From: an uncultured Bacteroidales bacterium
Lineage (GTDB): Bacteria; Bacteroidota; Bacteroidia; Bacteroidales; DTU049
DNA: 64,000 nt
Direction of reading: 5' to 3'
Assembly (NCBI GenBank): GCA_964388575.1
Contig: CAYMAZ010000011.1
Coordinates: 1,141-65,140, forward strand
How positions within the stretch are numbered: the stretch's first letter is position 1; each line of letters starts with the position of its first letter. Below are positions 4,013-56,800 of this stretch, piece by piece. The position numbers and the translations under genes are program-made. The notes beneath the pieces were generated by a model. That model ran no database searches. It was not told the origin of the DNA and saw only the letters and a program-made list of their open reading frames with translations.

Positions 4013-4066
4013 TTCTGAAAAATACATACATATCTTTTTTGTAATTTTACAGCCAAAGAATGACAT

Positions 4067-4771: not shown

Positions 4772-4792
4772 TTTCAAACTTCAAAAATTTCG

Positions 4793-4800
4793 TATTTTTG
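4793..4800 (+). promoter_or_regulatory. Candidate -7 box TATTTTTG
   Basis: Matches TAnnTTTG, 20 nt upstream of the ATG at 4820. Confidence 0.4.
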
Positions 4801-4819
4801 CAAAATCTAAAGAAATACA

Positions 4820-5155
4820 ATGGACACCAACCCATTTGAATACAAATACCATGAACAGTTAAGGGAAAAAGCACGTTCAATCGTCAATTTCAAGATGCAC
4901 AGAACAGTGTTTTTACTAGCCAATATTTTAATCTGGCTCGTCAATATGTTTTTATATTTTGCATTTCAACTCACATGGGTTTGGGCAATTTTTCCCACCT
5001 CAATCTGGGCTGTTATACTGATTTTTCATTATTTCTGGGTCTTTAAATGGAACAACGACAGGATTGAAAATGAATATCAGAAACTTTTAAGAAAAGGAAG
5101 CAAAACTGACAAAATATTGAAGGATTCTTCGACAGCAAACAACCAAACAAAATAA
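4820..5155 (+). CDS. Small membrane protein with two predicted TM helices (2TM-domain-like)
   Basis: Two adjacent hydrophobic helices (VFLLANILIWLVNMFLYFAF / IFPTSIWAVILIFHYFWVF) are flanked by charged termini. Its own -7 box is present. Confidence 0.6.
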   Translation: MDTNPFEYKYHEQLREKARSIVNFKMHRTVFLLANILIWLVNMFLYFAFQLTWVWAIFPTSIWAVILIFHYFWVFKWNNDRIENEYQKLLRKGSKTDKILKDSSTANNQTK

Positions 5156-5175
5156 AAAATTAAAATTCATACCAT

Positions 5176-5739
5176 ATGACAGACGACTCAATACTCCTTT
5201 TGGAAGAAACAGAAGAGCAGATGCAGCAGGCATTTGCCTATCTGGAAAAAGAACTTCTGAAAATCAGGGCAGGAAAAGCATCACCTCAGATTCTGGAAGA
5301 TATTAAAATTGATTATTACGGCACAATGACTCCGCTCAATCAAACAGCAAATATCAATACTCCGGATGCACGGACAATCGTTATTCAAGCCTGGGACAAG
5401 AGTATTCTTGGTGTGATTGAAAAAGCCATTCTTGCAGCGAATCTGGGATTTACACCTATGAACAACGGTGAGGTACTAAGAATCAACATCCCTCCTATCA
5501 CAGAAGAAAGGAGAAAAGAACTTGTCAAGAAGGCCAAGCAAGAAGCAGAAAATGCCCGAATTGCGATCAGGAATCTCAGGCGTAGTGCAAATGAGAAAGC
5601 CAAGAAACTTGAAAAAGATGGTGTTCCTGAAGATGAAGTAAAGTTACTTGAAAAAGAAATTCAGGACTTGACTGACAAGTGTATAGAAAAGGTTGATAAA
5701 CTGGTTGAAGGTAAGGAAAAAGAAATTCTTACCATTTAA
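5176..5739 (+). CDS. frr: Ribosome recycling factor
   Basis: ..LKIRAGKASPQILEDIKIDYYG..LNQTANI..PDARTI.. and the length (187 aa) are typical of RRF. Confidence 0.96.
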   Translation: MTDDSILLLEETEEQMQQAFAYLEKELLKIRAGKASPQILEDIKIDYYGTMTPLNQTANINTPDARTIVIQAWDKSILGVIEKAILAANLGFTPMNNGEVLRINIPPITEERRKELVKKAKQEAENARIAIRNLRRSANEKAKKLEKDGVPEDEVKLLEKEIQDLTDKCIEKVDKLVEGKEKEILTI

Positions 5740-5796
5740 TTACAGGACTGAAGTTCAGAGTGATTCCAGTCGTTTACACTGGAATGACAGGATTGT

Positions 5797-8292
5797 TTAA
5801 AACATATCATCCTCATTCATTTCATCATCCGAACGTGTTCTTCTTCTTTCAGCCTGTCCATTCTTCGCATTCATTTGCCAGGTGATTCCAACAGTGATAA
5901 CTCTTGATTGCCATTTTCTATTCACATCAAATTTGAAGGTTTCATCCTGCATGGAAACACCAAATTTCATGGTGTTAAAGATATCTCTGACATTCAGATT
6001 AACAGTGAGTTTATTCTGGATTGCCTGATATCGCAGTCCGGCATTCATAAAATACATTGCATTACGTTTGCCCTGCAGCATAACTCTTGGACCACGATAC
6101 ATTGCATTCAACTGAAGATCAAGAGCTTTGGTCAGTTTCATAGTAGAGTTCAGATTTCCGCTGTAAGAAAAGTCGTCTGCTGTCAAATCTGTATCCAGAT
6201 TTTCTCCGTTTATCATTGTTCTGAACAAACTCCCGCTTAAATTGAGCTTCCACCACTTAGTTATGGTTTGATTTACAATGAGTTCCAAGCCAAAAGCATC
6301 GGCACTGGCAATATTTTCATAGGTAGCCAAAGACATTGTGTCCTGATATGTAACTCTGAAACGGGAAATAAGATCAACTGTTCTTTTATAAAATACACTT
6401 GGCATCAGGCTTGTATTCTTCCATATTTTCATATATCCCAACTCCAGTGAATGAATATATTCAGGATTGAGATAAGGATTACCCCCCCTCAGGTTCGGTG
6501 AGTTTGTATAGTCAATAAAAGGACTTAACGAATGGAAACTTGGTCTGTTTACACGTTTACTATATGTAAGCTGTACTTCTTCTCCATCCTTTATCTTTCG
6601 GGAAATTGCAGCAGTTGGATATAAACTGTAATAGTCGTTAAGAATGACAGGTTCATTATTTACCTGTGGTTTTGCCTGCGCATATTCAAAACGCAGACCT
6701 GCTGAGTAGCTCCATTGATCATTGAAAGTCTGCGAAAAATTTGCATAAACAGCATAAACATCTTCATCAAAAGAAAACACATTACTTCTGAGTGTATCAA
6801 ACAATAAGTTCTCATAGGACGAATACCCAGAAAAATAAGCATTATCACTTGTCATAGTTCTGAGAGTTACATGAGTTCCAGTTTCCAGTTTGGCATTTTC
6901 GCCAATTGGATGAGTATAATCGATTTTGCCGAGTATGGTTGAGTTGATTGAGTTTGAGTTTATATCTTCAAGCCATTGATCAACAGAGTCTATTGCAACC
7001 CAGTTTTCATTGAAATAACTCCTGCTTTGTTCCGTTAAGCTTTGAAAATTGCCCCAGGAATAATTAAGATCAACCTGAAGAAATTGTTTGGGATTGTCAA
7101 ATTTCAGATTATAATAAAGATTGCTATTCAGCATATTGTGAGAAAATTCAGAGGTGTTATCATTTCTGAAATTTCTTAGAAAGCTGAGGGCATAATCTTT
7201 TTCTGTATTTGTGTTAAAAGATTCAGAATTTGAGCTTCTGATATTTCCGTTTACTGATATTCCAACGGTAGTTCTGGGATTTATAAAATAATCAGCACCA
7301 AGCTTAAATGAATGCCCCATTGAACGAGATTCATTTTCAGAAATTTGTTCCTGTAGATAAACAGGATAATTTGAGTTATAGCTATATCTGGTAGTCTGAC
7401 CTTCTCCCTTTCTACGGTCACTTCTCAGATCATAATTTGCATAAAGATTAACTTTCTCCAGACCATGTGATACAGCAATATTTCCGGAATATCCCAATTT
7501 TGAATTTGCGTTGACAGAAGCAATGACAGAAGTATTTTGTTCCTTTCTTTTTTTAAGAACGATATTAATAATTCCAGATGTTCCTTCAGGATCATATTTT
7601 GCAGAAGGATTTGTAATCAATTCAATTGTAGAAATCATGTCAGCCGGAATCTGATCCAGCACAGCTTTTCTGGAACCAGCAAAATTGGCTGGACGTCCGT
7701 CTATAAGTATGGTAACATTCTCTGAACCTCTGTAACTTACATTTCCATCCATATCCACAGTTACAGACGGGACAGTTTCGAGAACATCAATTGCAGTACC
7801 GCCTGCAATTGTCACATTGCTCTCAATATTGACGACCTTTCTGTCAAGATTCATTTCAACAAATGGTTTTTCACCAACAATTTCAACTGCATTAAGTGAA
7901 GCAGATGATAAAGTAATGTGTATTTTTCCCACATCCACAACATCTCCGGACTGCTGTGAAACAGTAAAAGGTCCGCATTCTTTGGTGTGATAACCCACAA
8001 ATGTAACTCTGAGCATATATTTACCTGGTGTGATCTGTGGAATTGAAAACAATCCACGTGTATTTGTAATTGCCCCACTCACCAGCATTGAGTCTCTCAT
8101 TCTGAAAGCTGCCACACTTGCAAATTCAAGTGGATGTCCGGAAAGAGAGTCTAGAACATGCCCTCTGATGGTTTTACTTGCCGGTGAATGATTAGCTTGT
8201 TGTTGTTGAGCTGAAAGTGTCAGATTAATTAACAGTAAAAGACAACTGAGTATCAAAGTGTACGTGAGTTTCATATTTAAGAAAATTTTCAT
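5797..8292 (-). CDS. TonB-dependent-receptor-like outer membrane beta-barrel protein with N-terminal carboxypeptidase-regulatory-like domain
   Basis: Signal peptide. A CarbopepD_reg-like segment (IRGHVLDS..PLEFASVA) is followed by a plug-like segment (AIDVLETVPSVTVDMDGNVSYRGSENVTILIDGRP). The rest is a long beta-strand-rich C-terminus ending in an aromatic residue (..DDMF). Confidence 0.8.
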   Translation of the reverse strand: MKIFLNMKLTYTLILSCLLLLINLTLSAQQQQANHSPASKTIRGHVLDSLSGHPLEFASVAAFRMRDSMLVSGAITNTRGLFSIPQITPGKYMLRVTFVGYHTKECGPFTVSQQSGDVVDVGKIHITLSSASLNAVEIVGEKPFVEMNLDRKVVNIESNVTIAGGTAIDVLETVPSVTVDMDGNVSYRGSENVTILIDGRPANFAGSRKAVLDQIPADMISTIELITNPSAKYDPEGTSGIINIVLKKRKEQNTSVIASVNANSKLGYSGNIAVSHGLEKVNLYANYDLRSDRRKGEGQTTRYSYNSNYPVYLQEQISENESRSMGHSFKLGADYFINPRTTVGISVNGNIRSSNSESFNTNTEKDYALSFLRNFRNDNTSEFSHNMLNSNLYYNLKFDNPKQFLQVDLNYSWGNFQSLTEQSRSYFNENWVAIDSVDQWLEDINSNSINSTILGKIDYTHPIGENAKLETGTHVTLRTMTSDNAYFSGYSSYENLLFDTLRSNVFSFDEDVYAVYANFSQTFNDQWSYSAGLRFEYAQAKPQVNNEPVILNDYYSLYPTAAISRKIKDGEEVQLTYSKRVNRPSFHSLSPFIDYTNSPNLRGGNPYLNPEYIHSLELGYMKIWKNTSLMPSVFYKRTVDLISRFRVTYQDTMSLATYENIASADAFGLELIVNQTITKWWKLNLSGSLFRTMINGENLDTDLTADDFSYSGNLNSTMKLTKALDLQLNAMYRGPRVMLQGKRNAMYFMNAGLRYQAIQNKLTVNLNVRDIFNTMKFGVSMQDETFKFDVNRKWQSRVITVGITWQMNAKNGQAERRRTRSDDEMNEDDMF

Positions 8293-28456: not shown

Positions 28457-28674
28457 TTGCATTCAGATTTTCAATAAAATATTTGCTCCTCAGATTCCTG
28501 TTCAGTGTAAAAATTTATGTGACAAAAAAACATTCTATCACTTTGCATGATATACATAACAACAGCCGAAGTCTGTCTGTAAGCAAGCTTTTCAAATTAT
28601 GCATCCGGAACAATGTTATGGCTTTTGCAGAATAAAAAAAGTTTTCAATAATTTTTTGATTGGCGAACTTTCTA

Positions 28675-28879
28675 CAATACAAAAGGCGTCATCTTCAGAT
28701 AAAAATCAACTGTGTTGATTTTTTATTGTCTTGAGACAGCTGCGATGAAATCTTGATTTTTGAGTAATTGTCTCAAAACAACAGAACGCCTTTTGTATTG
28801 CCACACTCTCATTATTCGTGGTATTTGTGAAATTCGTGGCTGAAAAAACGTGCGTTTTGAACCTAATAAGCAATTACAA
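28675..28879 (+). repeat. Structured intergenic repeat, copy A (nested-hairpin element 28675-28800 plus conserved TCGTGG/TTTGTGAAA tail)
   Basis: A 15-bp closing stem, CAATACAAAAGGCGT (28675-28689) / ACGCCTTTTGTATTG (28786-28800), encloses a 10-bp hairpin (28701-28723) and an 8-bp hairpin (28731-28738 / 28769-28776). The tail, from about 28801 to 28879, recurs at 33292-33371. Confidence 0.6.
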
Positions 28880-32329: not shown

Positions 32330-32868
32330 TACTTTCCTTTTTCAGACAAGGGGGTATCAGCTATGGTATTTTTCATTTATAAAATGAATGCCCCCGCTGC
32401 TGCAATTTTGCGGATTTTTCTCGCAAAGACACAGTTTTTTTTTATAGAGCGGTACTCTGTAAATTTATCTTTTGTCTGGAGTCAGGTGTATGCAAATATT
32501 ACAGTGCGAGTTGGTGGACTGACAAACTAATGCGCATGAACAGTGTGGTTTTGTTTTTACCACACGATGCAATCGTTCGGTTTTGGGGGTTGACGGTTTG
32601 CCACTTGGCGTAGGCGGGCAGTTTTGAAAATATATCATTCCGGCCAGCACAATTTTCATTAAATGTACAATCTTTCTCCTTACACCAATGTGCCCGTTAG
32701 CGTTTAGCCTTTGTTAACTGCAGGCTATCTTTACAATGGATTCAGAAATCTTCATCAATTCATTCATTAATAATTATAAACCAAGTACTTATGATAAAAG
32801 TCATTCTAGGATTTTGGGTATCTCCAATAAGGTATGCAAATAAAATCTCAATATGTTTTGAATCTCAA

Positions 32869-33057
32869 TTAAGCTTTATTTTTATTATTAATATATGAAA
32901 TATATCGACCAATATAATATGCGATAATCAAGGGCAGCCAAAGATGTCGGCATATAATGTTGCAGTTATCTATATTTTGATCAAAGTTCAGAATTATTAA
33001 GTAAACTCCGAATGAAAGTATTATAAAGACAATGTCAAAAAATTTTCCTTTATTCAT
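32869..33057 (-). CDS. Possible small two-TM membrane protein (weak call)
   Basis: A 62-aa ORF with two hydrophobic segments in an extremely AT-rich stretch. No homology recognised. Confidence 0.2.
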   Translation of the reverse strand: MNKGKFFDIVFIILSFGVYLIILNFDQNIDNCNIICRHLWLPLIIAYYIGRYISYINNKNKA

Positions 33058-33221
33058 AATTGTTTTCTTCTAATGATTAAAACTCACATTTAATAACGAA
33101 TTCAAAAACCAGCAAATCTTCCTGATATTAGAATTCTTTATTTTGCTTGCAACTTTCTAGTTTTTTATTCAACGTTTTGATTTTCAAAAATAGATAATAT
33201 TTTTAATTCTGCCGAACAAAT

Positions 33222-33371
33222 TTGAGACCACTGAGATGAAATCTTGCTTTCAGGAGCAGCTGTCTCAAAACAACAAAATACCTTTTGTATTGCCATACTC
33301 TCATTATTCATGGTATTTGTGAAATTCGTGGCTAAAAAAACGGAAGTCTTGAACCTGCTGAGCAGTTACAA
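33222..33371 (+). repeat. Structured intergenic repeat, partial copy A' (lacks the left closing arm)
   Basis: It aligns by eye with 28731-28879 in the same orientation. The core TGTCTCAAAACAACA..CCTTTTGTATTGCCA.ACTCTCATTATTC.TGGTATTTGTGAAATTCGTGGCT is nearly identical. The hairpin TTTGAGAC/GTCTCAAA is retained (33221-33228 / 33262-33269). Confidence 0.6.
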
Positions 33372-33405
33372 AAAAAGCAGATTGTAAGAAATCTGCTTCT
33401 TTTTA
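33369..33405. terminator. Bidirectional terminator hairpin (serves the minus-strand DUF3108-like gene)
   Basis: AAGCAGATT (33375-33383) pairs with AATCTGCTT (33390-33398) across a 6-nt loop. An A-run lies upstream and a T-run downstream. Confidence 0.7.
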
Positions 33406-33420
33406 AACATTCAGGCATCG

Positions 33421-41321: not shown

Positions 41322-41449
41322 TGGTTTCTCGCATAGACGCAGAGACGCAAAGAAGATAATTTTTTACCGATTATTACTAATGAAAAAAAGAATTGAGAAC
41401 TTTGTAAAAATCATCGTAAAGTCAAAATTTTATGATGTTATTTGCTAAA

Positions 41450-41569
41450 CCAAAGCCGTGATTTACTCTGAAAATTCTGATTTTGTAAGCATGCTAAAAA
41501 AATCGAAATTTTCAGAGTAAATTGCAAACACAAGCTCATGTTTTGTTTGTCTTTCGGACACGGCTTTGG
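41450..41569 (+). repeat. Structured intergenic repeat, copy B (closing stem + two internal hairpins)
   Basis: Closing stem CCAAAGCCGTG (41450-41460) / CACGGCTTTGG (41559-41569). A 16-bp perfect hairpin ATTTACTCTGAAAATT (41461-41476) / AATTTTCAGAGTAAAT (41507-41522). A second hairpin CAAACA..TGTTTG (41525-41549). Confidence 0.55.
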
Positions 41570-41652
41570 GAAGAACATTTTTCAATTTTGATTTACTTGT
41601 GACTCTTTAAATATTATTACTTTTACGACATAAACCAAACATACCTACATCC

Positions 41653-42030
41653 ATGCATGAAAATGAAATTGCCTCAATCGTTGTAGATACATGTTTCAAA
41701 ATTCATTCAGAGCTTGGACCTGGTCTTTTTGAATCAGTATATGAAGAAATTATTTATTATGAGTTGAGGGAAGCAGGATTAAGGGTTGAAAAACAAAAGT
41801 CAATTCCTGTTTTCTGGAAAGAATTAAAGATGGATGTTGGTTTTCATGCTGATCTGGGCATAGAAGAAAAAGTCATTCTTGAAATTAAATCAATTGAAAC
41901 GATTGCATCTGTTCATAAAAAACAGCTCTTAACATATTTAAAAGTTACAGGGTTGAAGTTGGGACTTCTGATAAATTTCAATGAAGCTCTCATTAAGACC
42001 GGCATAACAAGAATTGTCAACAAATTGTAA
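41653..42030 (+). CDS. GxxExxY protein (PD-(D/E)XK nuclease-like superfamily, PDDEXK_3 type)
   Basis: The motif GPGLFESVYEE and the D..(E)IK core (GFHADLGIEEKVILEIKS) fit the GxxExxY / PD-(D/E)XK-like small protein family. 125 aa. Confidence 0.85.
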   Translation: MHENEIASIVVDTCFKIHSELGPGLFESVYEEIIYYELREAGLRVEKQKSIPVFWKELKMDVGFHADLGIEEKVILEIKSIETIASVHKKQLLTYLKVTGLKLGLLINFNEALIKTGITRIVNKL

Positions 42031-42074
42031 ATTAACAGCGTCTTAGCGCCTTTGCGAGAAAAACACAAAAAATT

Positions 42075-45567: not shown

Positions 45568-47727
45568 CTATTGCTTCACAAACTTTGCAGTCTGAATTTC
45601 ATTTCCTGAGCGGACAACAAGCACATAAAAACCGCTGCTTAAATTGCTCAAGTTCACCTGCTTGATGGGATCCTCTGAACTATATTCTGCAACGATTTTA
45701 CCAGCAGGGTCATGAATCTGTATTTTGTGTTGCAGGTTGAAGCCCGTTTTTACAAAAAGCTCGTCTCCTGCCGGATTGGGGTAAACATGAATATTAAACG
45801 CATTGTTACTGAGTGAATCTTCATCTTCTACTGAGAAAATTACACCATTTTCATTAAACACTGCCAGGCCAGATTCTGTTCCAATCCATTTGTTATCATT
45901 GTCGTCAATTGAAATTGAAAAAACCCTGTTATCAGGCAATCCTGAATTTGATGTATTAAATATTGTCCAGGTTATGCCGTCAAATATCGTTAAGCCGCCA
46001 GTTGACGCAATCCATAAATTCCCGGGCAGATCAATGGCGATTGAATTCACATAATCAGATGCTAGTCCTGAATTGATGCTATTTTTCACATCCCAACTTG
46101 TGTTGTCGTATTTAGCTAAACCACCTCCCTGGGTTCCAATCCATTTATTATTAAACTGATCAATGACAATTGACCTTACAAAATCATTAGGCAACCCTGA
46201 ATTGAAAGTATTATACACTACCCAGTTCGTTTCATCAAATTTTGCAACACCATTATCTGTACCTATCCATTTATTTCCATACTGATCTATTGCGATAGAT
46301 TTAACATTATTATCTGGTAATCCGGAATTTGATGTATTAAATACAGTCCAGTTCGTGCCGTCAAACTTTGCCAAGCCAAGGCCAGACCCAATCCATTTGT
46401 TATTATACTGATCTATGGTGATTGAAAAAATATAATTATCAGGTAACCCGGAGTTTACAGTATTATATGTTGTCCAAATTGTTCCGTCAAATTTTACCAA
46501 ACCACCACCATAAGTTCCAAGCCAAATGACATCATTAACATCATTGGCAAAAGAAATAACATAATCTTCGGGCAAATCTGAATTTAATGTATTATAAGCA
46601 AGCCACTCAGAACCATTAAATGTTGTCAAGCCATGTTGACTTCCAATCAATATTTTTTCATTCTGATTAAAAGTTATACAACTAATAAAATTATCAGGCA
46701 ATCCGGAATTTGATGTGTTTTTTACATCCCAGGTTGTATCGTCAAAACTCACTAAACCACCTCCATTTGTGCCTATCCATTTATTTTCATTCTGATCAAT
46801 GATAATGGTCGAAATATTATTTTCCGGCAGACCCGAATTTGCAGTATTATATGTCACCCAGTTTGCATCGTCAAATGTTACCAGCCCTCCGGAAGTTCCA
46901 ATCCATTTTTTATCATTCTGGTCAATTGCCAATGAATAAATCCAATTGTCCATCAATCCTGAATTTGCAGTATTAAATACGTTCCAATTTGTTCCGTCAA
47001 ATGTTGCTAAACCACCACCAGATGTTCCAATATAAATTTTTCCGCTTTGATCTAATGATAAAGCTAAAACATCATCACTCGGTAGGTCGGAATTTGAGGT
47101 ATTATAAACGGTCCAGTTAATTCCGTCAAATTTAACCAATCCTACACCTCCTGCAAAAATATCCCATGTTGAAATCCATTTGTTATCAAACTGGTCAATA
47201 ACTACATAAAGTATTGTGTTTCCCGGTAAACCAGAATTTGAAGTGTTATATACTGTCCAGTTTGTACCGTCAAACATAACCAATCCTCCAAATCCGGTTC
47301 CAATCCATTTATTATTAAACTGATCAATTGCTATAGAATTTATACCACTATCCGGCAGGTCTGAATTTGCTGGATCAAAAACTGTCCAGTTCAAACCATC
47401 AAATTTTGCTATTCCACCACACCAGGTGCCTATCCATTTATTTCCATATTGATCAATGGCAATCGAACGAACTCTGTTGTTTGGTAATCCAGAGTTGGCT
47501 CGATTAAAAAAAATTGAACTACCATTTACTTTGTCATATCTTATAAGCCCTCCATTATAAGTCCCGATCCATATATATTCTTCTTCATCTGTTATTGAGG
47601 AAACATTGTTGCCATTTGTATAATTGATCCACGGAGGATTTTGAGAATATGCGTAAATTACAGACAGTGAAATGCTAACAAGAAATAATAGTATTCTTCT
47701 CATAATTTTTTTGTAAATATTTTTCAA
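45568..47727 (-). CDS. Secreted multi-repeat 'two-component regulator propeller' (Reg_prop) protein with T9SS CTD
   Basis: A ~24-25-aa module (NKWIGT..GGL..FDGTNWTVYNTSNSGLPDN.V.SIAIDQ) is repeated roughly two dozen times. Signal peptide present. C-terminal YPNPAGDELFV...GFYVLVV..AKFVKQ. Confidence 0.8.
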   Translation of the reverse strand: MKNIYKKIMRRILLFLVSISLSVIYAYSQNPPWINYTNGNNVSSITDEEEYIWIGTYNGGLIRYDKVNGSSIFFNRANSGLPNNRVRSIAIDQYGNKWIGTWCGGIAKFDGLNWTVFDPANSDLPDSGINSIAIDQFNNKWIGTGFGGLVMFDGTNWTVYNTSNSGLPGNTILYVVIDQFDNKWISTWDIFAGGVGLVKFDGINWTVYNTSNSDLPSDDVLALSLDQSGKIYIGTSGGGLATFDGTNWNVFNTANSGLMDNWIYSLAIDQNDKKWIGTSGGLVTFDDANWVTYNTANSGLPENNISTIIIDQNENKWIGTNGGGLVSFDDTTWDVKNTSNSGLPDNFISCITFNQNEKILIGSQHGLTTFNGSEWLAYNTLNSDLPEDYVISFANDVNDVIWLGTYGGGLVKFDGTIWTTYNTVNSGLPDNYIFSITIDQYNNKWIGSGLGLAKFDGTNWTVFNTSNSGLPDNNVKSIAIDQYGNKWIGTDNGVAKFDETNWVVYNTFNSGLPNDFVRSIVIDQFNNKWIGTQGGGLAKYDNTSWDVKNSINSGLASDYVNSIAIDLPGNLWIASTGGLTIFDGITWTIFNTSNSGLPDNRVFSISIDDNDNKWIGTESGLAVFNENGVIFSVEDEDSLSNNAFNIHVYPNPAGDELFVKTGFNLQHKIQIHDPAGKIVAEYSSEDPIKQVNLSNLSSGFYVLVVRSGNEIQTAKFVKQ
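45855..47595 (-). repeat. Coding tandem repeats (about 150-nt period) inside the Reg_prop gene
   Basis: The DNA-level periodicity mirrors the protein repeats. Repeated words include AATCCATTTATT/GTTATC and CCGTCAAA. Confidence 0.7.
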
Positions 47728-47863
47728 ATATACAATAAAACAACTTCAAAAACAACAACCAGGAAGTGTCAGGCATGCATGAAAAAGTTAAAGGCATATA
47801 ATAAAATCCCAAGAAAAAGACCTACGATAGCTCCCTCTTATTGTTCTGCTTATTGTAATTCAC

Positions 47864-47871
47864 TAATTTTG
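47864..47871 (+). promoter_or_regulatory. Candidate -7 box TAATTTTG
   Basis: TAnnTTTG match 12 nt upstream of the ATG at 47883. Confidence 0.4.
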
Positions 47872-47882
47872 TAAAAAAAATT

Positions 47883-48914
47883 ATGAAGAAAACCCTCGCC
47901 AGCGACAACTATGCCGGCATTCTGCCCGGAATTATCGAAGCCATTGCAGAAGCCAACACTGCGCATGAAACTTCATACGGGTACGACACATACACAAAAC
48001 TTGCTAAAAAAGAATTTCAGAAACTGTTCGGAAACAATATTGAAGTAACGTATGCTTTTAACGGTACAGGTGCCAATGTACTCGGAATCAGTTGTGTGAC
48101 ACAATCATTCAATTCAATATTCTGCTCTCAACATGCACATGCATTTGTGGATGAATCAACAGCTCCTGAAACATTTACAGGTTGCAGATTGTTTCCTTTG
48201 CCAACTGATGAACAGGGAAAGATTCCAGCTGAAACATTACGAAAAGCCATTATCCGAAAAGGCGATGAACATCATCCCCAACCCAGGGTTTTAACAATTT
48301 CTCAGCCCACCGAATACGGCACATTATACACCATAGATGAACTCAGGGCAATTTCTGCCGTACTCAAAGAACATGACATGTTATTTCACGTTGACGGAGC
48401 ACGTTTCTTCAATGCACTGGCAGCCATGAAATGTACTGCAAAAGAAATGATCACAGAAACTGGCGTTGATATTCTCTCTGTCGGCGGCACCAAAGCCGGG
48501 CTCATGATTGGTGAAGCCATTGTTTTTCTGAATCCAGAACTTGCCAAAGACCTGAAATATCGTCAGAAACAAAGTATGCAACTTGCATCGAAGATGCGGT
48601 TTATTTCAGTGCAGTTTCACAAGCTTCTGAAAGTTGAACTCTGGAAACCATCCGCTTCACATGCCAATGTCATGGCGGCTTTGCTTGCAAATGGCTTATC
48701 TGCAATTCCTCAGGTTCAGATTACCCGAAAAGTGGAAACCAATGCAGTTTTTGCAATCATACCTCCGGAATGGATTGACGAAATGCAGAAACTCACATTT
48801 TTCTACAGGTGGAAAGAAGCCACAGGCGAAATCAGGCTCATGTGCTCATTTGACACAACCGAAAAGGAAATTGAACTTTTTGTTCAACGAATGAGGGAAT
48901 TGTCTTCAAAATAG
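47883..48914 (+). CDS. ltaE: Low-specificity L-threonine aldolase (beta-eliminating lyase / PLP fold type I)
   Basis: LASDNYAG..., YGYDTYT..., NGTGANVLG, HVDGARF and SVGGTKAG (PLP Lys) follow the threonine aldolase pattern. Confidence 0.85.
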   Translation: MKKTLASDNYAGILPGIIEAIAEANTAHETSYGYDTYTKLAKKEFQKLFGNNIEVTYAFNGTGANVLGISCVTQSFNSIFCSQHAHAFVDESTAPETFTGCRLFPLPTDEQGKIPAETLRKAIIRKGDEHHPQPRVLTISQPTEYGTLYTIDELRAISAVLKEHDMLFHVDGARFFNALAAMKCTAKEMITETGVDILSVGGTKAGLMIGEAIVFLNPELAKDLKYRQKQSMQLASKMRFISVQFHKLLKVELWKPSASHANVMAALLANGLSAIPQVQITRKVETNAVFAIIPPEWIDEMQKLTFFYRWKEATGEIRLMCSFDTTEKEIELFVQRMRELSSK

Positions 48915-49010
48915 ATTTTACCTATTCCCCTAAGCTTTTATATGTTCATGTTTTTGTATCACTAAGTCGCACAAGGTACGTCACAAAGTTACTCAACGCA
49001 CAAGGTGCAT

Positions 49011-49126
49011 GGCAAAAGCCGTTATTTGTTCACATCAAAAAATCTGAAAACAGGCTTTCAGTTTTTTTCTGTGAACAAATCTCAAACACAACTCGTTGTG
49101 TTTGTTTCACAAACACGGCTTTTGTC
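49011..49126 (+). repeat. Structured intergenic repeat, copy C
   Basis: Closing stem CAAAAGCCGT (49013-49022) / ACGGCTTTTG (49115-49124). An 11-bp hairpin ATTTGTTCACA (49024-49034) / TGTGAACAAAT (49070-49080), with a small CTGAAA/TTTCAG hairpin in its loop. A 9-bp hairpin CAAACACAA (49083-49091) / TTGTGTTTG (49096-49104). Confidence 0.55.
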
Positions 49127-49224
49127 TGAGAAAAAAGTACGTTGTGAGACGTCGTGAAACAGTTCTGAAAAATATTATTGTATCTTTGATAGGCAAATAA
49201 TAAGACAATAGAAATTGAAAATAA

Positions 49225-49581
49225 ATTAGCAAAATAATACTTGATTGTGATTTCAGAATACATACTGAAATTGGACCGGGGTTACTCGAAAATATATACA
49301 AAACTTGTCTTGCTTATGAACGAACACAATCCGGATTGCTTGTTGAAACTGAAAAAATTTTCCCTTTCGTATATAAAGAGATTACGTTTGATTGTGGCTA
49401 TAGAATTGATATTTTGGTTGAAAACAAAGTGATCATCGAAACTAAAAACGTTGATTGTTTGACAGATGTTCATTTTGCACAAACATTAACATATATGAAA
49501 TTGTCAGGTTGTAGACTTGGGTTAATATTAAATTTTAAAACCAAGTCTTTAAAAGATGGTATTAAAAGACTGGTCTTGTAA
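49225..49581 (+). pseudogene. Second GxxExxY (PD-(D/E)XK-like) gene, apparently 5'-disrupted
   Basis: The in-frame translation ..KIILDCDFRIHTEIGPGLLENIYKTCL..ILVENKVIIETK.. aligns with the 41653 paralog. There is no ATG/GTG/TTG before the TTG at 49336, which lies after the GxxExxY motif. The expected N-terminus (..IEIENKLAK) sits in another frame, offset at the run GCAAAATAA (49229-49237). Confidence 0.5.
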
Positions 49582-49629
49582 TAATTTTTTCATTATTTAT
49601 CTCAAAGTTACGCAATGAACGACTTGCCC

Positions 49630-49750
49630 GACAAAAGCCATCATTTATTATCATAGGAAAAGTATGAAAGCGAGCTTTCTTGGTTTTTCTATGATAATAA
49701 ATACCAAGCACAACATGTTGTGTTTGTGTGCTTAGCACATGGCTTTTGTC
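49630..49750 (+). repeat. Structured intergenic repeat, copy D
   Basis: A 12-bp perfect closing stem GACAAAAGCCAT (49630-49641) / ATGGCTTTTGTC (49739-49750). A 14-bp hairpin ATTTATTATCATAG (49643-49656) / CTATGATAATAAAT (49689-49702). A 7-bp hairpin AAGCACA (49707-49713) / TGTGCTT (49726-49732) encloses the CACAACATGTTGTG palindrome. Confidence 0.55.
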
Positions 49751-49820
49751 TCAGAGAGAAGTGCGTCGTGGATACTTTGTGAAAACTTCGTGAAACGTTG
49801 TGAAACCAATCGCCAATATT

Positions 49821-51224
49821 CTATAACAGGCTTTCATCAATCTGATAAGGAGCAATGTGTTCAGGTTTGCAATGAAGTATACACTGATCGCAACTTGAAA
49901 GTTCACCCTTCAGGCGCCGGTGCACCATATTCTCAGTACGAGTCTGCAATCTTTCAACCCTGATCTTTCTGACAACTTCGTCAGCAAAAGCATACATCAT
50001 CAGCAAACGTGCATTTTTTTCACAAATTCCGCGCTGACGCAGATAAAACATTGAGTCAAGATCGAGCTGTCCGGTTGTAGAACCGTGACTACACCGCACA
50101 TCATCATTGTAGATTTCAAGGAAAGGTTTACTTATGACACTTGCCTGATCAGTCAGAAGGATATTCTTGTTCGACTGAAACGCTTCGGTTTTCATTGCAC
50201 CTTCAGCAACAAAGATATGACCTGTAAACACTGAACTGGCTTCTTCATCAAGAATCCCCTTAAAAGTCTGACGACTGAAGCAGTTGGGCGCATAATGCCT
50301 CACAAACAACTGATTATCTACATGTTGTGTTTTGTCAATCAGATAAAGCCCGGATAAATCAGCATTTGCCTCAGTGCCATTCAAATTCACGACAAATTCA
50401 TTTCTGATGGATCCTGCATTAAACGTAATCATATTGCTATGCAACTGCCCCTGTGATTCAATATTAAAAAAAGATGTATTGATCATTGAAGAGCTGAGGT
50501 CTTTATTCTGAAGCTTATAATGGTCAAGTTTGGCATTTTCGCCAATAAAGAACTCAGTGACTGAATTTTTAAAGGAATTCTTATCTTCCAGTGAATCATC
50601 ACATTGCAAAAAAGTCAGGCTGCTGTTTTTCTCAAGTACAATCAGGTTTCTTGTCTGGACAAACAGTCCATCCCTGTGCATGATAAGGTTCACCAATTGC
50701 ATGGGTGTATCACAATGAATGTTTTCAGGAACATAAATAAACAAACCGTCAGATGCCAGTGCTGCGTTCAAAGCTGTCAAGCCATTATAGGTTGCAGTTT
50801 CTGATTTGCTCCAAAACTTTTCAATAAGATCGGGAAACTCCATAAGTGCCTGTTTGATACTTCCGGCTATGATTCCGTTATCCATGCGGGTCAGTGGACT
50901 TGAATCGTACAGATTATGACCGTTGTAATTGGCAAAGAAAAGTGTTTCAAAATTGTGAATTTCACATTTAAAAACGTTGTTCACATCAATGGAACGATCG
51001 ATCTGTATATCATTGCTGAATTTATATTCAGGCTGAAGGATTTTTCCCAGATCTGTTCCCTTCCAATATTCCATAGCAGTTGACGGGAATCCGTTTTCTT
51101 TAAAAAAATCCAATGCCTTATTACGCTCAGATTGAACATAATCAGGAAAACCTAAATGATCACCATTCAGTCTGTCGTACAACTTCAACAAGTTATCAGT
51201 TAATACTTGTATGTTCTGATTCAT
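49821..51224 (-). CDS. sufD: Fe-S cluster assembly protein SufD
   Basis: C-terminal beta-helix region with ..KPFLEIYNDDVRCSHGSTTGQLD..MFYLRQRGI... Follows sufB-sufC. Confidence 0.9.
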   Translation of the reverse strand: MNQNIQVLTDNLLKLYDRLNGDHLGFPDYVQSERNKALDFFKENGFPSTAMEYWKGTDLGKILQPEYKFSNDIQIDRSIDVNNVFKCEIHNFETLFFANYNGHNLYDSSPLTRMDNGIIAGSIKQALMEFPDLIEKFWSKSETATYNGLTALNAALASDGLFIYVPENIHCDTPMQLVNLIMHRDGLFVQTRNLIVLEKNSSLTFLQCDDSLEDKNSFKNSVTEFFIGENAKLDHYKLQNKDLSSSMINTSFFNIESQGQLHSNMITFNAGSIRNEFVVNLNGTEANADLSGLYLIDKTQHVDNQLFVRHYAPNCFSRQTFKGILDEEASSVFTGHIFVAEGAMKTEAFQSNKNILLTDQASVISKPFLEIYNDDVRCSHGSTTGQLDLDSMFYLRQRGICEKNARLLMMYAFADEVVRKIRVERLQTRTENMVHRRLKGELSSCDQCILHCKPEHIAPYQIDESLL

Positions 51225-51233
51225 GAGTTTCTC

Positions 51234-51980
51234 CTAATTAATTTCCTTTATCCAGTTATACCCTTTTTCTTCAAGTTCGAGAGCCAACTCTTTGCCTCCT
51301 GATTTCACCAATTTTCCATCATATAAAATATGAACATAATCTGGAACGATATAATCCAGTAGCCTCTGATAATGGGTGATTACAATTGTTGCATTATCCG
51401 GTCTTTTCAATTTATTGACACCATTGGCAACAATACGGAGGGCATCAATATCAAGTCCTGAATCAGTTTCATCCAGAATTGCCATCTGAGGTTCAAGCAT
51501 AGCCATCTGAAAAATTTCATTTCGTTTTTTCTCACCTCCTGAAAATCCTTCATTTACAGAACGGTTGGTTAAAGAAGTACTCAATTCAACAAGTTCCTGC
51601 TTTTCACGCATCAATTTCAGAAAATCAGCTGAAGTAAGTTCAGGTTGTCCGCGATACTTTCGAACTTCATTAATTGCAGTTTTCATAAAATTAACCATGG
51701 AAACACCCGGAATTTCAACAGGATATTGAAAGCCAATGAATAACCCTTCACGTGCACGATCTTCTATAGACATATCTAGAAGGTTATGTCCTTTGTAAAT
51801 CACTTCGCCATCATCAACATTAAACAAGTCACGACCAGCCAAAACCTGTGCAAGTGTGCTTTTTCCGGTTCCGTTCGGACCCATGATCGCATGAATCTCA
51901 CCGGGTCTCACATCAAGATTGAAGTTTTTCAGAATATTTTTACCGTTGACTGAAACTTTTAAATTTTTTATGTGTAACAT
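51234..51980 (-). CDS. sufC: Fe-S cluster assembly ATPase SufC
   Basis: The start is set at MLHIKNLKV (ATG at 51980). GPNGTGKST (Walker A), LSGGEKKR-like FSGGEKKRNE and LDETDSGLD (Walker B). Confidence 0.93.
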   Translation of the reverse strand: MLHIKNLKVSVNGKNILKNFNLDVRPGEIHAIMGPNGTGKSTLAQVLAGRDLFNVDDGEVIYKGHNLLDMSIEDRAREGLFIGFQYPVEIPGVSMVNFMKTAINEVRKYRGQPELTSADFLKLMREKQELVELSTSLTNRSVNEGFSGGEKKRNEIFQMAMLEPQMAILDETDSGLDIDALRIVANGVNKLKRPDNATIVITHYQRLLDYIVPDYVHILYDGKLVKSGGKELALELEEKGYNWIKEIN

Positions 51981-52029
51981 ATCTTTTTCTTTAAACTTAT
52001 TTTTACTTTGTACTTTTTTAACTTTTAAA

Positions 52030-53475
52030 CTACCCAACGCTCCCTTCCAGACTTATACTCAGAAGTTTTTGTGCTTCAACAGCAAACTCCATCGGCAGTT
52101 TCTTTAAAACCTCTCTGGCATATCCGTTTACAATGAGTCCGATTGCATCCTCCATTCCAATACCACGTTGCAGGCAGTAGAACAACTGATCATCTGAAAT
52201 TTTTGAAGTTGTGGCTTCATGCTCAACAATAGACGATCTGTTATCAACCTGTATGTATGGAAAAGTATGTGCCCCACAGGTATCTCCCATGAGCAAAGAG
52301 TCACATTGGGTGAAATTGCGGCTTCCAGTTGCTGCTTTACCAATTCTTACCAGTCCGCGATACGCATTATTGCTTTTCCCGGCTGAAATTCCCTTTGAAA
52401 TGATTGTGCTGCTGGTATTTTTTCCAATGTGGATCATTTTAGATCCCGTATCTGCCTGTTGATGATTATTTGTCACTGCCACAGAATAAAATTCACCGAC
52501 AGAATTTTCTCCAAGTAAAATACAGCTAGGATACTTCCATGTAATCGCACTCCCTGTTTCAACCTGGGTCCATGAAATTTTTGAGTTCTTTCCTTTACAG
52601 ATTCCCCGTTTTGTCACAAAATTATAGATGCCTCCTTTTCCCTGTTTATCTCCAGGAAACCAGTTCTGTACTGTTGAATACTTCACTTCTGCATTGTCCA
52701 TAGCTACAATTTCAACAACTGCAGCATGAAGCTGATTTTCATCACGCATTGGGGCTGTACATCCTTCCATATAACTCACATAAGACCCTTCGTCAGCAAT
52801 GATGAGTGTACGCTCAAACTGACCGGTATTACGCGCATTAATACGAAAATATGTGCTCAATTCAATTGGGCAACGCACACCTTTCGGTATGTAACAGAAT
52901 GAACCGTCGCTAAAAACTGCTGAATTGAGAGCTGCATAATAATTATCACTAAATGGAACCACCGAACCGAGATACTTTTTCACTAGGTCAGGATGATGCT
53001 GAACTGCGTCACTCATTGAACAAAAAATCACTCCGTGGTCAGCAAGAGTTTCCTGCATGGTTGTTTTTACGGATACACTGTCAAATACTGCATCCACAGC
53101 CACGCCACTCAGCATTTTCTGTTCTTCAAGCGGAATTCCGAGTTTATTAAATGTATCTATAAGTTCAGGATCTACTTCATCCAAAGATTTGAGTTCAGGT
53201 TTATTCTTTGGTGCAGCATAATAAATGATATCCTGAAAATCAATTTCAGGGATGCTCAGATGACCCCACTTCGGATGAACCATTTCTTTCCATTTTCTGA
53301 AAGCCCGAAGTCTGAATTCGAGCATGAACTCGGGTTCATTCTTTATTTCTGAAATCTTACGAACAACATTTTCATCCAATCCTTTTGGAAAATAGTCCAT
53401 TTCAATTTCCGTTGTAAAGCCGAATTTATATTCATTTTCAATGACTTCCGGAATTATGTTATTTTCTTCATTCAT
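52030..53475 (-). CDS. sufB: Fe-S cluster assembly scaffold SufB
   Basis: ..YKFGF.T.IE...., ..GVIFCS..DA...HP.LV.KYLG.VVP..DN. and the C-terminus [30 protein letters not shown]-like are classic SufB. Confidence 0.95.
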
Positions 53476-53514
53476 GATTACTATTTTAATTTATTCCATA
53501 TAAGAATTGAAATG

Positions 53515-53811: not shown

Positions 53812-53897
53812 CTGGCAATAAATTGCTTTTAATCTATAAACTTATTCCATAAAAAGATATTTTTTTACTACAAGAAATAATTTAAAAAATTGACAAA

Positions 53898-56800
53898 ATG
53901 ATACATGAAGTATATAAAACCATTGTTCAGGAAGCTCCATATGGTTTTAGTATGTTTCAAATCATTTCAAATGATTTGAACAAACCGTATCATTTTCGAT
54001 GTACTGAAATTAATTCTGCTTTTGAGAAAATATCGGGAATTCAAGCCGAACAGATTATAAATCATGGAGCATCCGATGTTTTTAGCCGGATGTTTCAGGA
54101 TGGTTTTGACTGGAACATTCTTTTTTTAGAAGTTCTCAGTAAACACAAACAGGAAGAGATTAAGAAATTCCATACAACTCTGAATCAGTGGGTTAACATA
54201 ATTATTCAACCCATCAATAATCAATATATCTGTGCAATTTTATACACAGGACATGAGTTTGAAAAAGAAGAACATATTATCAATCAGCCTGTTAAACAAG
54301 AATCACTGACTGATGTTGCTGGTTTTTCACTAAATGAGGAGGGTAAAATAACAGAAGTTGACCAGCATTGGAGCCAGTTATTCGGATACACTCTTGAGGA
54401 AGTTTCAGGCCGCTGGTTCGGGGTATTTATTCATCCTGAACACATCGATGACTTTATTCAATGGTTTAACAAACTAAAATATTCAGGCAAGCTTGACAAA
54501 GAACTGAAAATTAATACTCGGACTGGTGACAACAGTTTGTTTCACTTCAGTGGTATGGTCATTTCTAAAGATGACAATCAGACCATCAGTATTGTATGCC
54601 GGATGGAGAGAAAGCCTGAAACAGATGTATTTCATTATAATCAGGAAGAAGCAATAAATGTTGTTCCTGAGAATCAAACAAATGAGATCAAGGAACAAAA
54701 TGAACCAAAAGGTATTCAATTTCAAAATGATGTTGAACCTCATCCTGAGTCCCATCATAAAGAACAACAATTTTCGTCATCCCTAGATTTAGAGTTCCTG
54801 AAAGAAATTACCCGAAATATTCCGATTCTTATTGCAATTACTGATTCTGAAGGAAATTTTGAGTTTACAAGTAAATCTTACGATATTTTAGGAAAACAGT
54901 CCGGCAGTTTGAAAGGAAAAAATTTCGCTGAGCTCATTCACCGGGATGAAAAAAATGATATTGGTCTGATTCTGAATGATCTCAACAAACATCCTGATTC
55001 CATCCGTACAATAGAGTTACGCTATCAGTCTCCCGACGGCAATTATATATCTTATGAAACAACCATTCATAGTGTTGTTTTGACTGAAAACGAACCACAA
55101 TTCATTATCACTTCAGTAAATCTTTCTGAACGAAAAAACGCCCAGATCTCTTTACGCACAAGTGAAGAAAAATTTCGCAGACTTGTTGAACATTCTCCGG
55201 ATATCGTTTACAGTTATTCATCAATACATGGAAGAAGGTTTCATTCTTCAAAGGTTCTTCATGTTATCGGGTATTCAACTGAGCAATTGCATAGTGACCC
55301 CTCTTTGTGGAGAACTTTAATCCATCCGGACGATCAGGCAATATTTGACAGAGCACTTGCCGCTACAGAAACAGGTCATGCACTGAATATTGAATACCGC
55401 ATCAAAGATGCAACAGATCAGTGGAAATGGATTTATGACCGCAGCATTCATATTCACTATAGGTATGGAGAGACTCTGATCGAGGGTCTTGCCATGGACA
55501 TTACAGATCGCAAACAGGCTGAAGAGCAATTGCAACTAACCAAAGATACCTACGTGGGAATTTTCAATTCCCTCACTGAAGCAATCTTTATTCAGGACGA
55601 GTCAGGGTCATTCATTGATGTCAACAAAGGGGCAATGTTAACTTACGGTTACGAAAGAAAAGAGCTCATCGGTAAATCCCTTCTTTCACTAGCTGCTCCT
55701 GAAATGAACGACTTTGAGCAGATAAAACAAATTCTGAAGGATGTTTTTCTGACCGGAAAATCAGAACAGATTGATTTCTGGGGAATTCGTAAAAACAGAG
55801 AAATTTTTCCAAAAGATGTCATCATCAATAAAGGGAATTACTTTGGTCAGAACATTCTGATTATCACAGCCAGGGATACTTCCGAACGAAAACAGGCAGA
55901 AAAAAAATCCTTTGAGCATAATCTTTTTGTTTCTTCTCTTATGAAGGCTGTTCCTGTTGCTGTTTTTTACAAAGACCTTAATGGTAAGTTCATTGATTGT
56001 AATGATATTTTCACAGAGATTACGGGCCTGAAGAAAGAAGATATATTAGGCAAAACTGTCAGTGATATTTGGGAGAATGATATTTCTGAATATTTTATGA
56101 GTAAGGATAAGGAACTTCTTTCATCTTCAGATTACATCATGTATGAGCACATTGTGAAAAACAGAAATGGAGAAATCATCCCCGTAATTCTGACAATAGA
56201 TTTTTTTAATGATTCGGAAGGAAATAAAGCAGGAATAGTTGGAGCTGTCATTGACATCCGGAATCAAAAAAAAGCCGAAGATGAACTCAAGAAAGCTAAA
56301 GAACAGGCTGAAAACAATGATCGACTGAAATCTGCTTTTCTTGCCAATATGAGTCATGAAATTCGGACTCCAATGAACGGAATTCTGGGATTTACAAGTT
56401 TGCTCAAAGAACCGCTCGGACCAGGAGAAAACCAGAATGAATACATTGAAATTATAGAACAGAGCGGGCAAAGAATGCTTGGCATTATAAATGATTTAAT
56501 CAACATTTCAAAGATTGAAGCGGGTCAGATGGATGTTTCGATTACAGACATCAACCTCAACGAACAGCTTGAATATCTTTTCACTTTTTTCCTGCCTGAA
56601 GCCCAGAAGAAAGGAATTCAACTCTTTGTTTATACTCCACTTTCTGATCAGAATGCCAATATTCAAACTGATAAAGAAAAAGTTATTGCCGTATTAACCA
56701 ATCTTATCAAAAATTCAATCAAGTTCACTGACAAAGGAAGTATTGAGTTTGGTTATGAGATGAAAGATTCAGACATCAGGTTTTTTGTTAAAGACACAGG

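Follow-up and report, generated by a model that had tools for sequence, protein, structure and literature searches.

The 906 nt between ltaE and sufD (positions 48915-49820) in a 64,000-nt stretch of an uncultured Bacteroidales genome (contig CAYMAZ010000011.1; the whole stretch is called the window below) are best explained, in our judgment with slightly better than even probability, as a small selfish cassette that was inserted into the chromosome and is related to the intervening sequences (IVSs) of 23S rRNA that carry an open reading frame (ORF). The cassette is IVS-like and also resembles a miniature inverted-repeat transposable element (MITE); its mode of movement is one that we infer. 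It is made up of two copies, C and D, of a folded element around a disrupted gene of the GxxExxY family (gene 2), and is termed cassette 2 here. Cassette 1, elsewhere in the window, holds an intact GxxExxY gene (gene 1). An inserted composite cassette had been proposed in an earlier note made from the DNA letters alone, and this proposal is now supported by the homology of C and D, by relatives with empty sites and by the recurrence of the layout at an unrelated locus.

Insertion between ltaE and sufD

The genes ltaE (47883-48914, + strand) and sufD (49821-51224, - strand) are convergent. Their stop codons (48912-48914 and 49821-49823, the latter reading CTA on the + strand) bound the 906-nt gap, which the cassette fills as the earlier note had described. 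Relatives of the locus were found via SufD homologues and have the order sufB-sufC-sufD followed by a convergent ltaE. The ltaE and sufD stop codons are separated by 1 nt in one relative (L099; SufD amino acid identity 76%) and by 5 nt in two others (L102 and L103; 73%). Since the stop codons of these relatives lie only 1-5 nt apart, the 906 nt are identified as an insertion by this comparison. None of the relatives has the same intergenic content without the repeats.

The 906 nt could instead be ancestral intergenic DNA that was deleted in the relatives. The polarity of the change depends on few relatives with a SufD identity of 73-76%, and the locus is a recombination mosaic. However, this explanation needs precise deletions in two lineages that spared both stop codons and left them 1 and 5 nt apart. 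In addition, the cassette type is also found at an unrelated locus, and element A, a copy of the same element in cassette 1, has the same presence/absence pattern at a different site. We therefore regard an ancestral origin of the 906 nt as highly improbable.

Filled sites were found as well. In three loci (L104, L105 and L106) an intact orthologue of gene 2 and its closest homologue, P0241, lies between ltaE and sufD with both C and D present. The cores of C and D are each 96-97% identical to their L104 orthologues, though gene 2 is dead in the window. When window positions 47600-53500 are compared with L104 positions 139-6143, identity is 95-99% to the left of ltaE, 77-98% in ltaE, 93-99% in the cassette, 58-84% in sufD and ~80% in sufC/sufB, with one of the boundaries at the right edge of the cassette. 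Such a mosaic indicates recombination between diverged lineages. Either the cassette was carried from one diverged background into another by recombination, or it was re-inserted at the same site; the mosaic would agree with both.

The earlier note had also remarked on missing sufS and sufE genes. No cysteine desulfurase or sufE gene was found after sufD or among the ~40 window ORFs that were scanned (every long ORF except overlapping spurious ones; three more genes were named only through the precomputed annotation of identical contigs). The empty-site relatives likewise have sufBCD and then convergent ltaE without sufS/sufE. Because they share this arrangement, the absence of sufS/sufE after sufD predates the insertion and, on the evidence of gene order, is ancestral and not produced by it, which answers a question that the note had left undecided.

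Structure of cassette 2

All parts of the cassette are given on the + strand. A left spacer after the ltaE stop codon (48915-48949) belongs to the inserted 906 nt; it is ~75-84% identical to L104, as against 96-97% in the elements, and is absent at L099 and L102. Element C begins with a head (48950-49010) formed by a T-run and the L-type words TCGCACAAGG, GTCACAAAG and CGCACAAGG, which is conserved in L104 and in L107, a locus with a related composite. Its core (49011-49126) scores 120 bits with the covariance model described below and is followed by a short tail (49127-49160) with the R-type words GTACGTTGTGAG and ACGTCGTGAAAC, which aligns with the tail of D. The C tail of L104 holds one additional 22-nt word unit, and this indel lies between direct ACGTCGT repeats.

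The tail of C is followed by the promoter-like spacer of the GxxExxY gene (49161-49207), in which TATCTTTG at 49181-49188 fits TAnnTTTG, the Bacteroidota -7 consensus of the Bacteroides promoter literature. The block ATATTATTGTATCTTTG within this spacer is kept in L104 and L107 amid differing surroundings. The GxxExxY pseudogene occupies 49208-49581. Element D then begins with a shortened head (49582-49629; TCTCAAAGTTACGCAATGAACG) that aligns with the inner part of the C head and pairs only weakly with the D tail (z -0.8). The D core (49630-49750; 127.5 bits) leads into a full tail (49751-49808) with the R-type words GTGCGTCGTG, CTTTGTGAAAA, CTTCGTGAAAC and GTTGTGAAAC. The right spacer (49809-49820) ahead of the sufD stop codon was read from the sequence and the L104 alignment.

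C and D are in direct orientation around gene 2. In a blastn comparison of the 64-kb window with itself, 48981-49170 matches 49600-49795 (190-196 nt, 72% identity, E 6e-19), and the tails are aligned by MAFFT too. The earlier note had called C and D direct repeats with similar tails; both alignment programs agree with this, its coordinates turn out to be exactly those of the cores as closed by helix P1, and the homology is also borne out by the covariance model. The arms of the unit are imperfect inverted repeats, with the T-run and L-type words such as GTCACAAAG in the head and R-type words such as CTTTGTGAAAC and CTTCGTGAAAC in the tail. The outer arms (C head, D tail) are full length and the inner arms (C tail, D head) are shortened. 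The bracketing inverted repeat, 48981-49001 with 49761-49782, agrees in 18 of 22 aligned columns. A duplex of C head and D tail has a free energy of -35.2 kcal/mol (z -3.1), which was equalled by 2 of 300 shuffles; pairing of the C head with the C tail gives -26.5 kcal/mol (z -3.7). The outer inverted repeat described in the note is thus present, with the refinement that it consists of the full C head and the full D tail and that each element has arms of its own.

The gene 2 remnant matches PF13366 with 121.9 bits (cut-off 22) and TIGR04256 with 131.4 bits (cut-off 35). Its frame is open from 49225 to 49581, with a stop codon ahead at 49222 and the first canonical in-frame start only at 49336; the N-terminal codons lie in another frame, which ends at a stop at 49235. 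Comparison with the intact L104 orthologue (124 amino acids, 96% identical to the remnant, same site) reveals two lesions, a change of the start codon from ATG to ATA at 49208-49210 and the loss of one nucleotide near 49226-49229 that turned TTAAGC into TTAGC. The window copy of gene 2 is dead, so that the disrupted ORF reported between C and D is a true pseudogene with a lost start and a frameshift. Residues G25, E28, Y31, D68, E78 and K80, which form the GxxExxY motif and the catalytic D ... E-x-K residues of PD-(D/E)XK proteins, are invariant in the protein alignment, the window remnant included.

A folded core shared by four elements

A covariance model (R1) was built from C, D and A. It recovers these three and a divergent fourth member, element E. 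A second model (R2) was made from an alignment that includes E, so that the R2 score of E is not independent. Running R2 with filters off gave no additional convincing copies in the window, which thus contains four core copies; each core is ~125 nt long and each unit with its arms ~240 nt. Two further model matches were rejected as family members: the one at 53889-54000 is weak and runs into the start of a coding sequence, and the other, at 3969-4012, is just a simple hairpin.

In C, the closing helix P1 pairs 49011-49022 with 49115-49126 and encloses a long variable P2, a conserved P3 and a small P4. In D, P1 is a 12-nt perfect inverted repeat (49630-49641 with 49739-49750) around P2, P3 and P4. 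The minimum free energies are -46.7 kcal/mol for the C core (z -7.5) and -56 kcal/mol for the D core (z -8.3), relative to shuffled sequences. Base pairs were counted over nine copies (four from the window, one from L095 and two each from L104 and L107): 95% of the cells are paired, and both sides have changed in 23 of the 46 pairs, counts that are somewhat inflated by an alignment fitted to the model. Neither 500 shuffles nor any slid register came near these values, and RNAalifold independently gives the same three helices (P1-P3). P4 was read by eye between P3 and P1 and kept outside the pair count, the alignment being out of register in that segment. It covaries as GTTT/AAAC in C, GTGC/GCAC in D, GTC/GAC in A, GTCT/AGAC in L107 and ATCT/AGAT in E; if this reading of P4 holds, the core would be a four-way junction.

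The strand of the fold was assessed from wobble pairs and substitutions. The first five copies have 8 G-U and 5 A-C pairs, which is insufficient to assign a strand, and the related copies together have 15 G-U vs 6 A-C pairs, which is weak evidence when taken alone. Nine substitutions separate the C and D cores of the window from those of L104. Five of these are unpaired, and the remaining four change GU to AU, CG to UG or GU to GC on the + strand. Because the opposite strand would have A-C mismatches at those four positions, the substitution pattern shows that it is the gene (+) strand whose fold is under selection, be it in RNA or in single-stranded DNA.

These data raise the question of whether the cores function as structured RNAs, either alongside the GxxExxY gene or its neighbours or as their regulators, for instance as a terminator or stabiliser, a riboswitch-like leader or an antitoxin-like or guide-like RNA, their repetition being secondary. 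The strong covariation agrees with this, as do the wobble-preserving substitutions and the excess of 15 to 6 G-U pairs in favour of the gene strand. On the + strand, C and D have terminator-like hairpins and a following U-tract in their 3' part; A, C and D are each downstream of a co-oriented gene, and A and C end ~80 nt before a GxxExxY start. However, C is upstream of the conserved promoter-like block, and E stands alone on the strand opposite to both of its neighbours with no GxxExxY gene nearby. No copy accompanies 80 other GxxExxY genes or the homologues with 71-72% identity to gene 2, and the elements are kept at 96-97% identity next to a dead gene and have no Rfam match. An RNA function as the primary explanation thus appears improbable to us. 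A riboswitch-like alternative pairing (3' strand of P3 with the J/P1 segment) is clear in C and not conserved in A or E, and was not relied on.

Rfam yielded no matches at the gathering threshold in the whole window; a search of the region with E up to 10 returned only chance-level matches, the best being rli53 with 22.6 bits against a threshold of 70. No core copies were detected in the 80 loci with close GxxExxY homologues (regular expression, then R1 and R2), in ~85 kb of relatives, in two loci with gene 2 homologues, in plasmid and phage collections, or in one pattern scan of viral contigs. A pattern scan of metagenomes gave 12 matches, of which none was confirmed by the model and ~7 are expected by chance according to a rough estimate; the pattern needed CAYGGCTTT and was thus blind to copies of the L107 type (CGCGGCTTT). 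As far as these data reach, the structured core appears to be restricted to this lineage and the L107 organism.

Further copies and the composite as a possible mobile unit

In L107, a gene (P0242) that is 82% identical to gene 2 is flanked by elements and lies between unrelated genes. Read along the locus, a partial and a full unit come first, then the promoter block and the gene, then another partial and another full unit. The truncated copies, at L107 positions 770-860 and 1567-1655, consist of the head and the first 22 nt of the core (GACAAAAGCTGTGATTTGCTCCGTC) and stand before each full element. The arms of one of the full elements, D', are the best preserved ones, with a head-tail pairing of -41.3 kcal/mol (z -7.1). 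Core identity is 70% between C and D, 89% between the two flanking copies of L107 (C' and D'), 77-78% between C and either C' or D', and 70-74% between D and either of them. These values may mean either that flanking copies are homogenised by recombination or that each composite was assembled separately. The partial-plus-full pair on both flanks of the gene would fit a duplication by recombination better than two independent insertions.

Element A has its core at 41446-41576 (+ strand; 112 bits, z -7.1) upstream of gene 1. With its degenerate head and tail it spans roughly 41385-41640, ~265 nt, and lies between the left repeat of cassette 1 and the start of gene 1. The canonical inverted repeats of this cassette are TTTCTCGCATAGACGCAGAGACGCAAAG on the left (41325-41352, +), which consists of CGCAAAG-type words, and GCGTCTTAGCGCCTTTGCGAGAAA on the right (42038-42062, +). 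The orthologous cassette L111, on the same contig as L099, reads left repeat, 33 nt, ATG to stop codon, 8 nt, right repeat. As L111 has 33 nt between the left repeat and the ATG and the window has 300 nt, element A was, by this comparison, inserted singly into cassette 1.

Alignment of window positions 41575-41652 with L095 positions 1135-1209 shows that ~60 nt before the start of gene 1 are nearly unalignable, while the rest of the cassette is 98-99% identical; element A is only 88% identical between the two. This hypervariable segment may mark a place where change or gene conversion is locally frequent, like the one reported before the ORF of the Coxiella IVS.

Element E (28672-28799, - strand) is a divergent solo member that reaches 45 bits with R1 (E 2.7e-8) and a non-independent 87.7 bits with R2. 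Its head has the words CACGAAT and CACAAAT, its tail is lost and its head and tail pair no better than chance; compensatory changes are seen in P1 and P3. Downstream of it, the segment 28457-28671 (- strand) starts with CTGCAAAAGCCATAAC, like the 5' half of P1, and has no closing strand and no model match. This segment may be a degenerate second unit.

The existence of single elements bears on how the composite arose. Cassette 2 might not be a mobile unit at all, if a resident GxxExxY gene was hit separately on both sides by MITE-like elements that prefer such flanks. Element A alone beside gene 1 and the solo E speak for this, as does the fact that C and D are only 70% identical to each other and 96-97% identical each to its own orthologue. 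The L107 copies, 89% alike and thus nearer to each other than to C or D, and the extra partial copies there point the same way. However, the gene and its elements are jointly absent at the empty sites, and no relative has the gene alone between ltaE and sufD. The outer head and tail are full and the inner ones shortened, as expected if the ends of the whole unit matter, and the layout recurs at another locus with an 82%-identical gene. Separate insertions are thus unlikely in our view, though they deserve serious weight. Movement as one composite unit is likely judging from these arrangements, with repeated targeting of GxxExxY flanks by single elements as the alternative; the earlier proposal of a composite cassette needs the correction that each element is a self-contained unit that can insert alone, as element A did.

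Word arms across the GxxExxY family

GxxExxY (PF13366) genes number thousands across bacterial genomes, and more than 8,000 close homologues were scored. A set of 80 genome loci with close gene 1 homologues (62-77% identity) was examined, from Bacteroidota, Ignavibacteriota, Chlorobiota and one metagenome-assembled genome (MAG) labelled 'Paceibacterota'. In almost all of them TTTCTCGCAAAGGCGCAGAGACGCAAAG and its complement stand on either side of the gene, in many cases multiplied into long alternating or tandem arrays (e.g. L005, L006, L008, L013 and L017), and canonical cassettes have tri-word inverted repeats of 26-28 nt. Among the 76 loci with enough flanking sequence, word clusters occur upstream of the gene in 70, downstream in 62 and on both sides in 59; 49 have the canonical left-gene-right arrangement. 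Their density in the 10-kb loci is 1.13 per kb within 1.5 kb of the gene vs 0.03 per kb beyond, a 36-fold enrichment.

The type of word tracks the nuclease subfamily, CGCAAAG accompanying gene 1 and CACAAAG gene 2. Summed over the 80 loci, flanks of the gene 1 subfamily contain 593 CGC-type and 19 CAC-type words, and flanks of the gene 2 subfamily contain 0-1 CGC-type and 4-11 CAC-type words per locus. The gene 2 homologues in L108-L110 (71-72% identity) are flanked by CACAAAG and CTTTGTGAAAC words, as found in the heads and tails of C and D, and have CTTTGTGAAAC and CTTCGTG words downstream of the gene as in the D tail. In L109 the unit upstream of the gene consists of L-words, a 4-nt loop, R-words and 8 nt before the ATG; in C, the 125-nt core takes the place of this loop.

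In unrelated MAGs of Flavobacteriales and Cryomorphaceae (L021 4760-5800 and L056 4640-5580), GxxExxY genes lie between units of left repeat, ~120 nt and right repeat. These and other ~120-nt spacers were considered as relatives of C and D and dismissed: their folds are weak (-12 to -25 kcal/mol) and their sequences unrelated to C and D, though homologous within a genome. Since the L021 and L056 cores are unrelated to C and D, the unit-gene-unit architecture recurs with lineage-specific cores.

A gene of the four-helix-bundle family 23S_rRNA_IVP was seen as an insert just upstream of sufB in the relative L100, bracketed by a different word inverted repeat, AAGGCTAAGGCTAAGG with CCTCAGCCTCAGCCT (GGCTAAG and CTCAGCC words; 7150-7215 and 7590-7625). 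Because this gene is bracketed in a similar way, the theme of word brackets extends to the other IVS protein family.

The GxxExxY protein

Gene 1 (41653-42030, + strand) encodes an intact protein of 125 amino acids that matches PF13366 (4e-38, 130.8 bits) and TIGR04256 (7e-40, 135.9 bits). Its AlphaFold model has a mean predicted local distance difference test score (pLDDT) of 92 and a PD-(D/E)XK fold. Assignment to a defence system with PADLOC gave only insignificant matches (AbiEii 0.003, Cas4b 0.01) and was discarded. A literature search on GxxExxY, PDDEXK_3 and IVS proteins found essentially nothing on the family and no account of the word repeats or of mobility.

A proposed mechanism

The basic module would be the gene for a GxxExxY PD-(D/E)XK nuclease of 125 amino acids between inverted arms of two or three short tandem words, and appears to occur in many Bacteroidota, Ignavibacteriota and Chlorobiota. 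In this lineage, arms of the CACAAAG subfamily would also form gene-less, MITE-like units of ~240 nt that consist of head words, a core with P1-P4, and tail words. On this view cassette 2 would be a single nuclease gene that has a promoter of its own and is enclosed by two of these units in direct orientation. The cis-acting sites may be the word arms together with the folded single strand that they close, and the cognate GxxExxY nuclease would make the break that permits spread by gene conversion or recombination between arms or units. Two direct repeats would also allow a circle to be excised and re-integrated into a solo unit. Transcribed arms would presumably pair like the stems of IVSs, so that the insert would be harmless between genes.

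Several observations count against the view of the 906 nt as a nuclease-linked selfish cassette. Neither junction shows a visible target-site duplication, and the precise ends of the element are not definable. The site shared with L104 could be accounted for by ordinary homologous recombination, and the closer similarity of C' and D' to each other than of either to C or D suggests that the composite may have been assembled independently. Word clusters keep to the vicinity of the genes instead of being dispersed, which is a poor fit for a nuclease acting on many copies in the genome, and the co-variation of word type and subfamily could stem from co-inheritance alone. The structural matches of the AlphaFold model are generic (Cas4 SSO0001, lambda-exonuclease-like proteins, tRNA-splicing endonuclease and Hjc; E ~1e-3, template modelling score ~0.47), the PDB contains no sequence homologue of the GxxExxY protein, and we know of no activity for any protein of this family.

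A wider generalisation is possible, and we offer it tentatively, as something that we believe rather less than we doubt it: GxxExxY nucleases with their cognate tandem-word hairpins may constitute an unrecognised class of small mobile elements. It would comprise autonomous forms (arm-gene-arm) and non-autonomous forms (arm-core-arm) that spread when the nuclease starts recombination at DNA that is folded or palindromic. The 125-nt core would then be a structured substrate or RNA specific to one lineage, and the 23S rRNA IVSs only the rRNA-resident tip of the class.

Comparison with known systems

GxxExxY genes also occur in IVSs. The IVSs in 23S rRNA of Leptospira, Coxiella and others are similar to the cassette in being small selfish inserts (~0.4-0.75 kb) with one small ORF and terminal inverted repeats of ~28 nt that form a stem; their ORF family, the four-helix-bundle 23S_rRNA_IVP, is named after them. 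The IVS of Coxiella is described as a selfish element whose ends form a 28-bp inverted repeat or stem, whose ORF is decaying and in which the stretch right before the start codon is changeable (PMC4990558). The hypervariable 60 nt ahead of gene 1 match this last trait. Unlike these IVSs, cassette 2 lies between the protein-coding genes ltaE and sufD and not in rRNA, and its arms consist of tandem words, are often arrayed, enclose a 125-nt core and also exist as gene-less units.

MITEs and palindromic repeats such as the Neisseria Correia elements, repetitive extragenic palindromic (REP) sequences, bacterial interspersed mosaic elements (BIMEs) and REP doublets forming hairpins (REPINs) are, like the units here, short non-coding multi-copy intergenic sequences with terminal inverted repeats and long hairpins, and are frequent after stop codons and between convergent genes. 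Insertion polymorphism is shared with MITEs: A is absent from L111, and the whole cassette from L099 and L102. A target-site duplication is not visible and no transposase is among the ORFs scanned; the sole linked gene is the GxxExxY nuclease that shares the word type of the arms. A nuclease gene flanked by repeats presumed to be its targets also parallels the gene for a REP-associated tyrosine transposase (RAYT), which is flanked by REPs. However, no Y1/HUH (RAYT) or DDE transposase was found among the ORFs scanned, and the gene here encodes a PD-(D/E)XK protein of 125 amino acids. In the 10-kb loci examined, the word repeats are grouped next to the genes and not dispersed. The nuclease genes occur in several copies with a patchy distribution, and the core is a branched junction instead of a simple hairpin.

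Integron cassettes with their attC sites are alike in that an ORF is flanked by direct copies of a folded element, that structure is conserved above sequence and that the fold is selected on one strand. C and D could thus be taken as attC sites folding as single-stranded DNA in a cluster of attC sites lacking an integron integrase (CALIN). Against this, no integrase or other tyrosine recombinase was found among the ORFs scanned, and R''/R' core sites are missing: the base of P1 lacks RYYYAAC / GTTRRRY and reads GRCAAAAGCC...GGCTTTTGTC. The element, a branched junction of ~125 nt within 50-nt arms, is longer and more branched than a typical attC site. The gene has a promoter-like block of its own, and elements also insert singly, one of them lying in cassette 1 upstream of the gene without a partner. 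We accordingly give an integron-like array next to no credence.

Cassette 2 also resembles composite or translocatable units of the IS26 type, in which direct copies of a mobile repeat stand on either side of a gene. If such copies recombined, a circle would be released and one solo copy would stay behind; insertion of the circle at a further copy would restore the layout. The duplicated partial-plus-full units of L107 fit this scheme. Unlike in IS26-type units, the flanking repeats encode no transposase, and neither a circular form nor a recombinant solo site was observed. The element stands outside the defined families, being neither an Rfam family nor an integron, a REP/RAYT system or an insertion sequence, and it behaves like a selfish insert of the IVS or MITE type.

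The locus gives the GxxExxY family a testable biology: filled sites can be set cleanly against empty ones, one site has both an intact and a dead allele, gene-less derivatives insert by themselves, and protein subfamily is strictly paired with word type. Action of the nuclease on its own arms, if real, would explain the long-puzzling ORFs in rRNA intervening sequences and would define a compact nuclease-plus-site system.

Genomic surroundings

The window has a G+C content of 38% and a Bacteroidota-like set of housekeeping genes, among them those for ribosomal proteins S2, L13 and S9, elongation factor Ts (EF-Ts), ribosome recycling factor (RRF), elongation factor P (EF-P), leucyl-tRNA synthetase (LeuRS) and sufBCD. 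No transposase, integrase, tyrosine recombinase, reverse transcriptase or Y1_Tnp/HUH gene was detected among the window ORFs scanned. A search for tRNA and tmRNA genes found none, and Rfam gave 0 rRNA matches in the window at the gathering threshold.

Assemblies of the source organism tend to break near the cassettes. L001 stops 384 nt and L002 228 nt past sufD, L097 and L098 are contigs of less than 2 kb around cassette 1, and Logan contigs terminate within the cassette, so that the repeats appear to break short-read assemblies at such loci. Breaks of this kind would be expected of elements or genes that the genome has in several copies.

A 1.1-kb AT-rich stretch without an ORF of at least 90 amino acids (32330-33420) lies between a YfhO-like gene and a DUF3108 gene and opens with a G+C-rich hairpin (GGGGGTATCAGC...GCCCCC).

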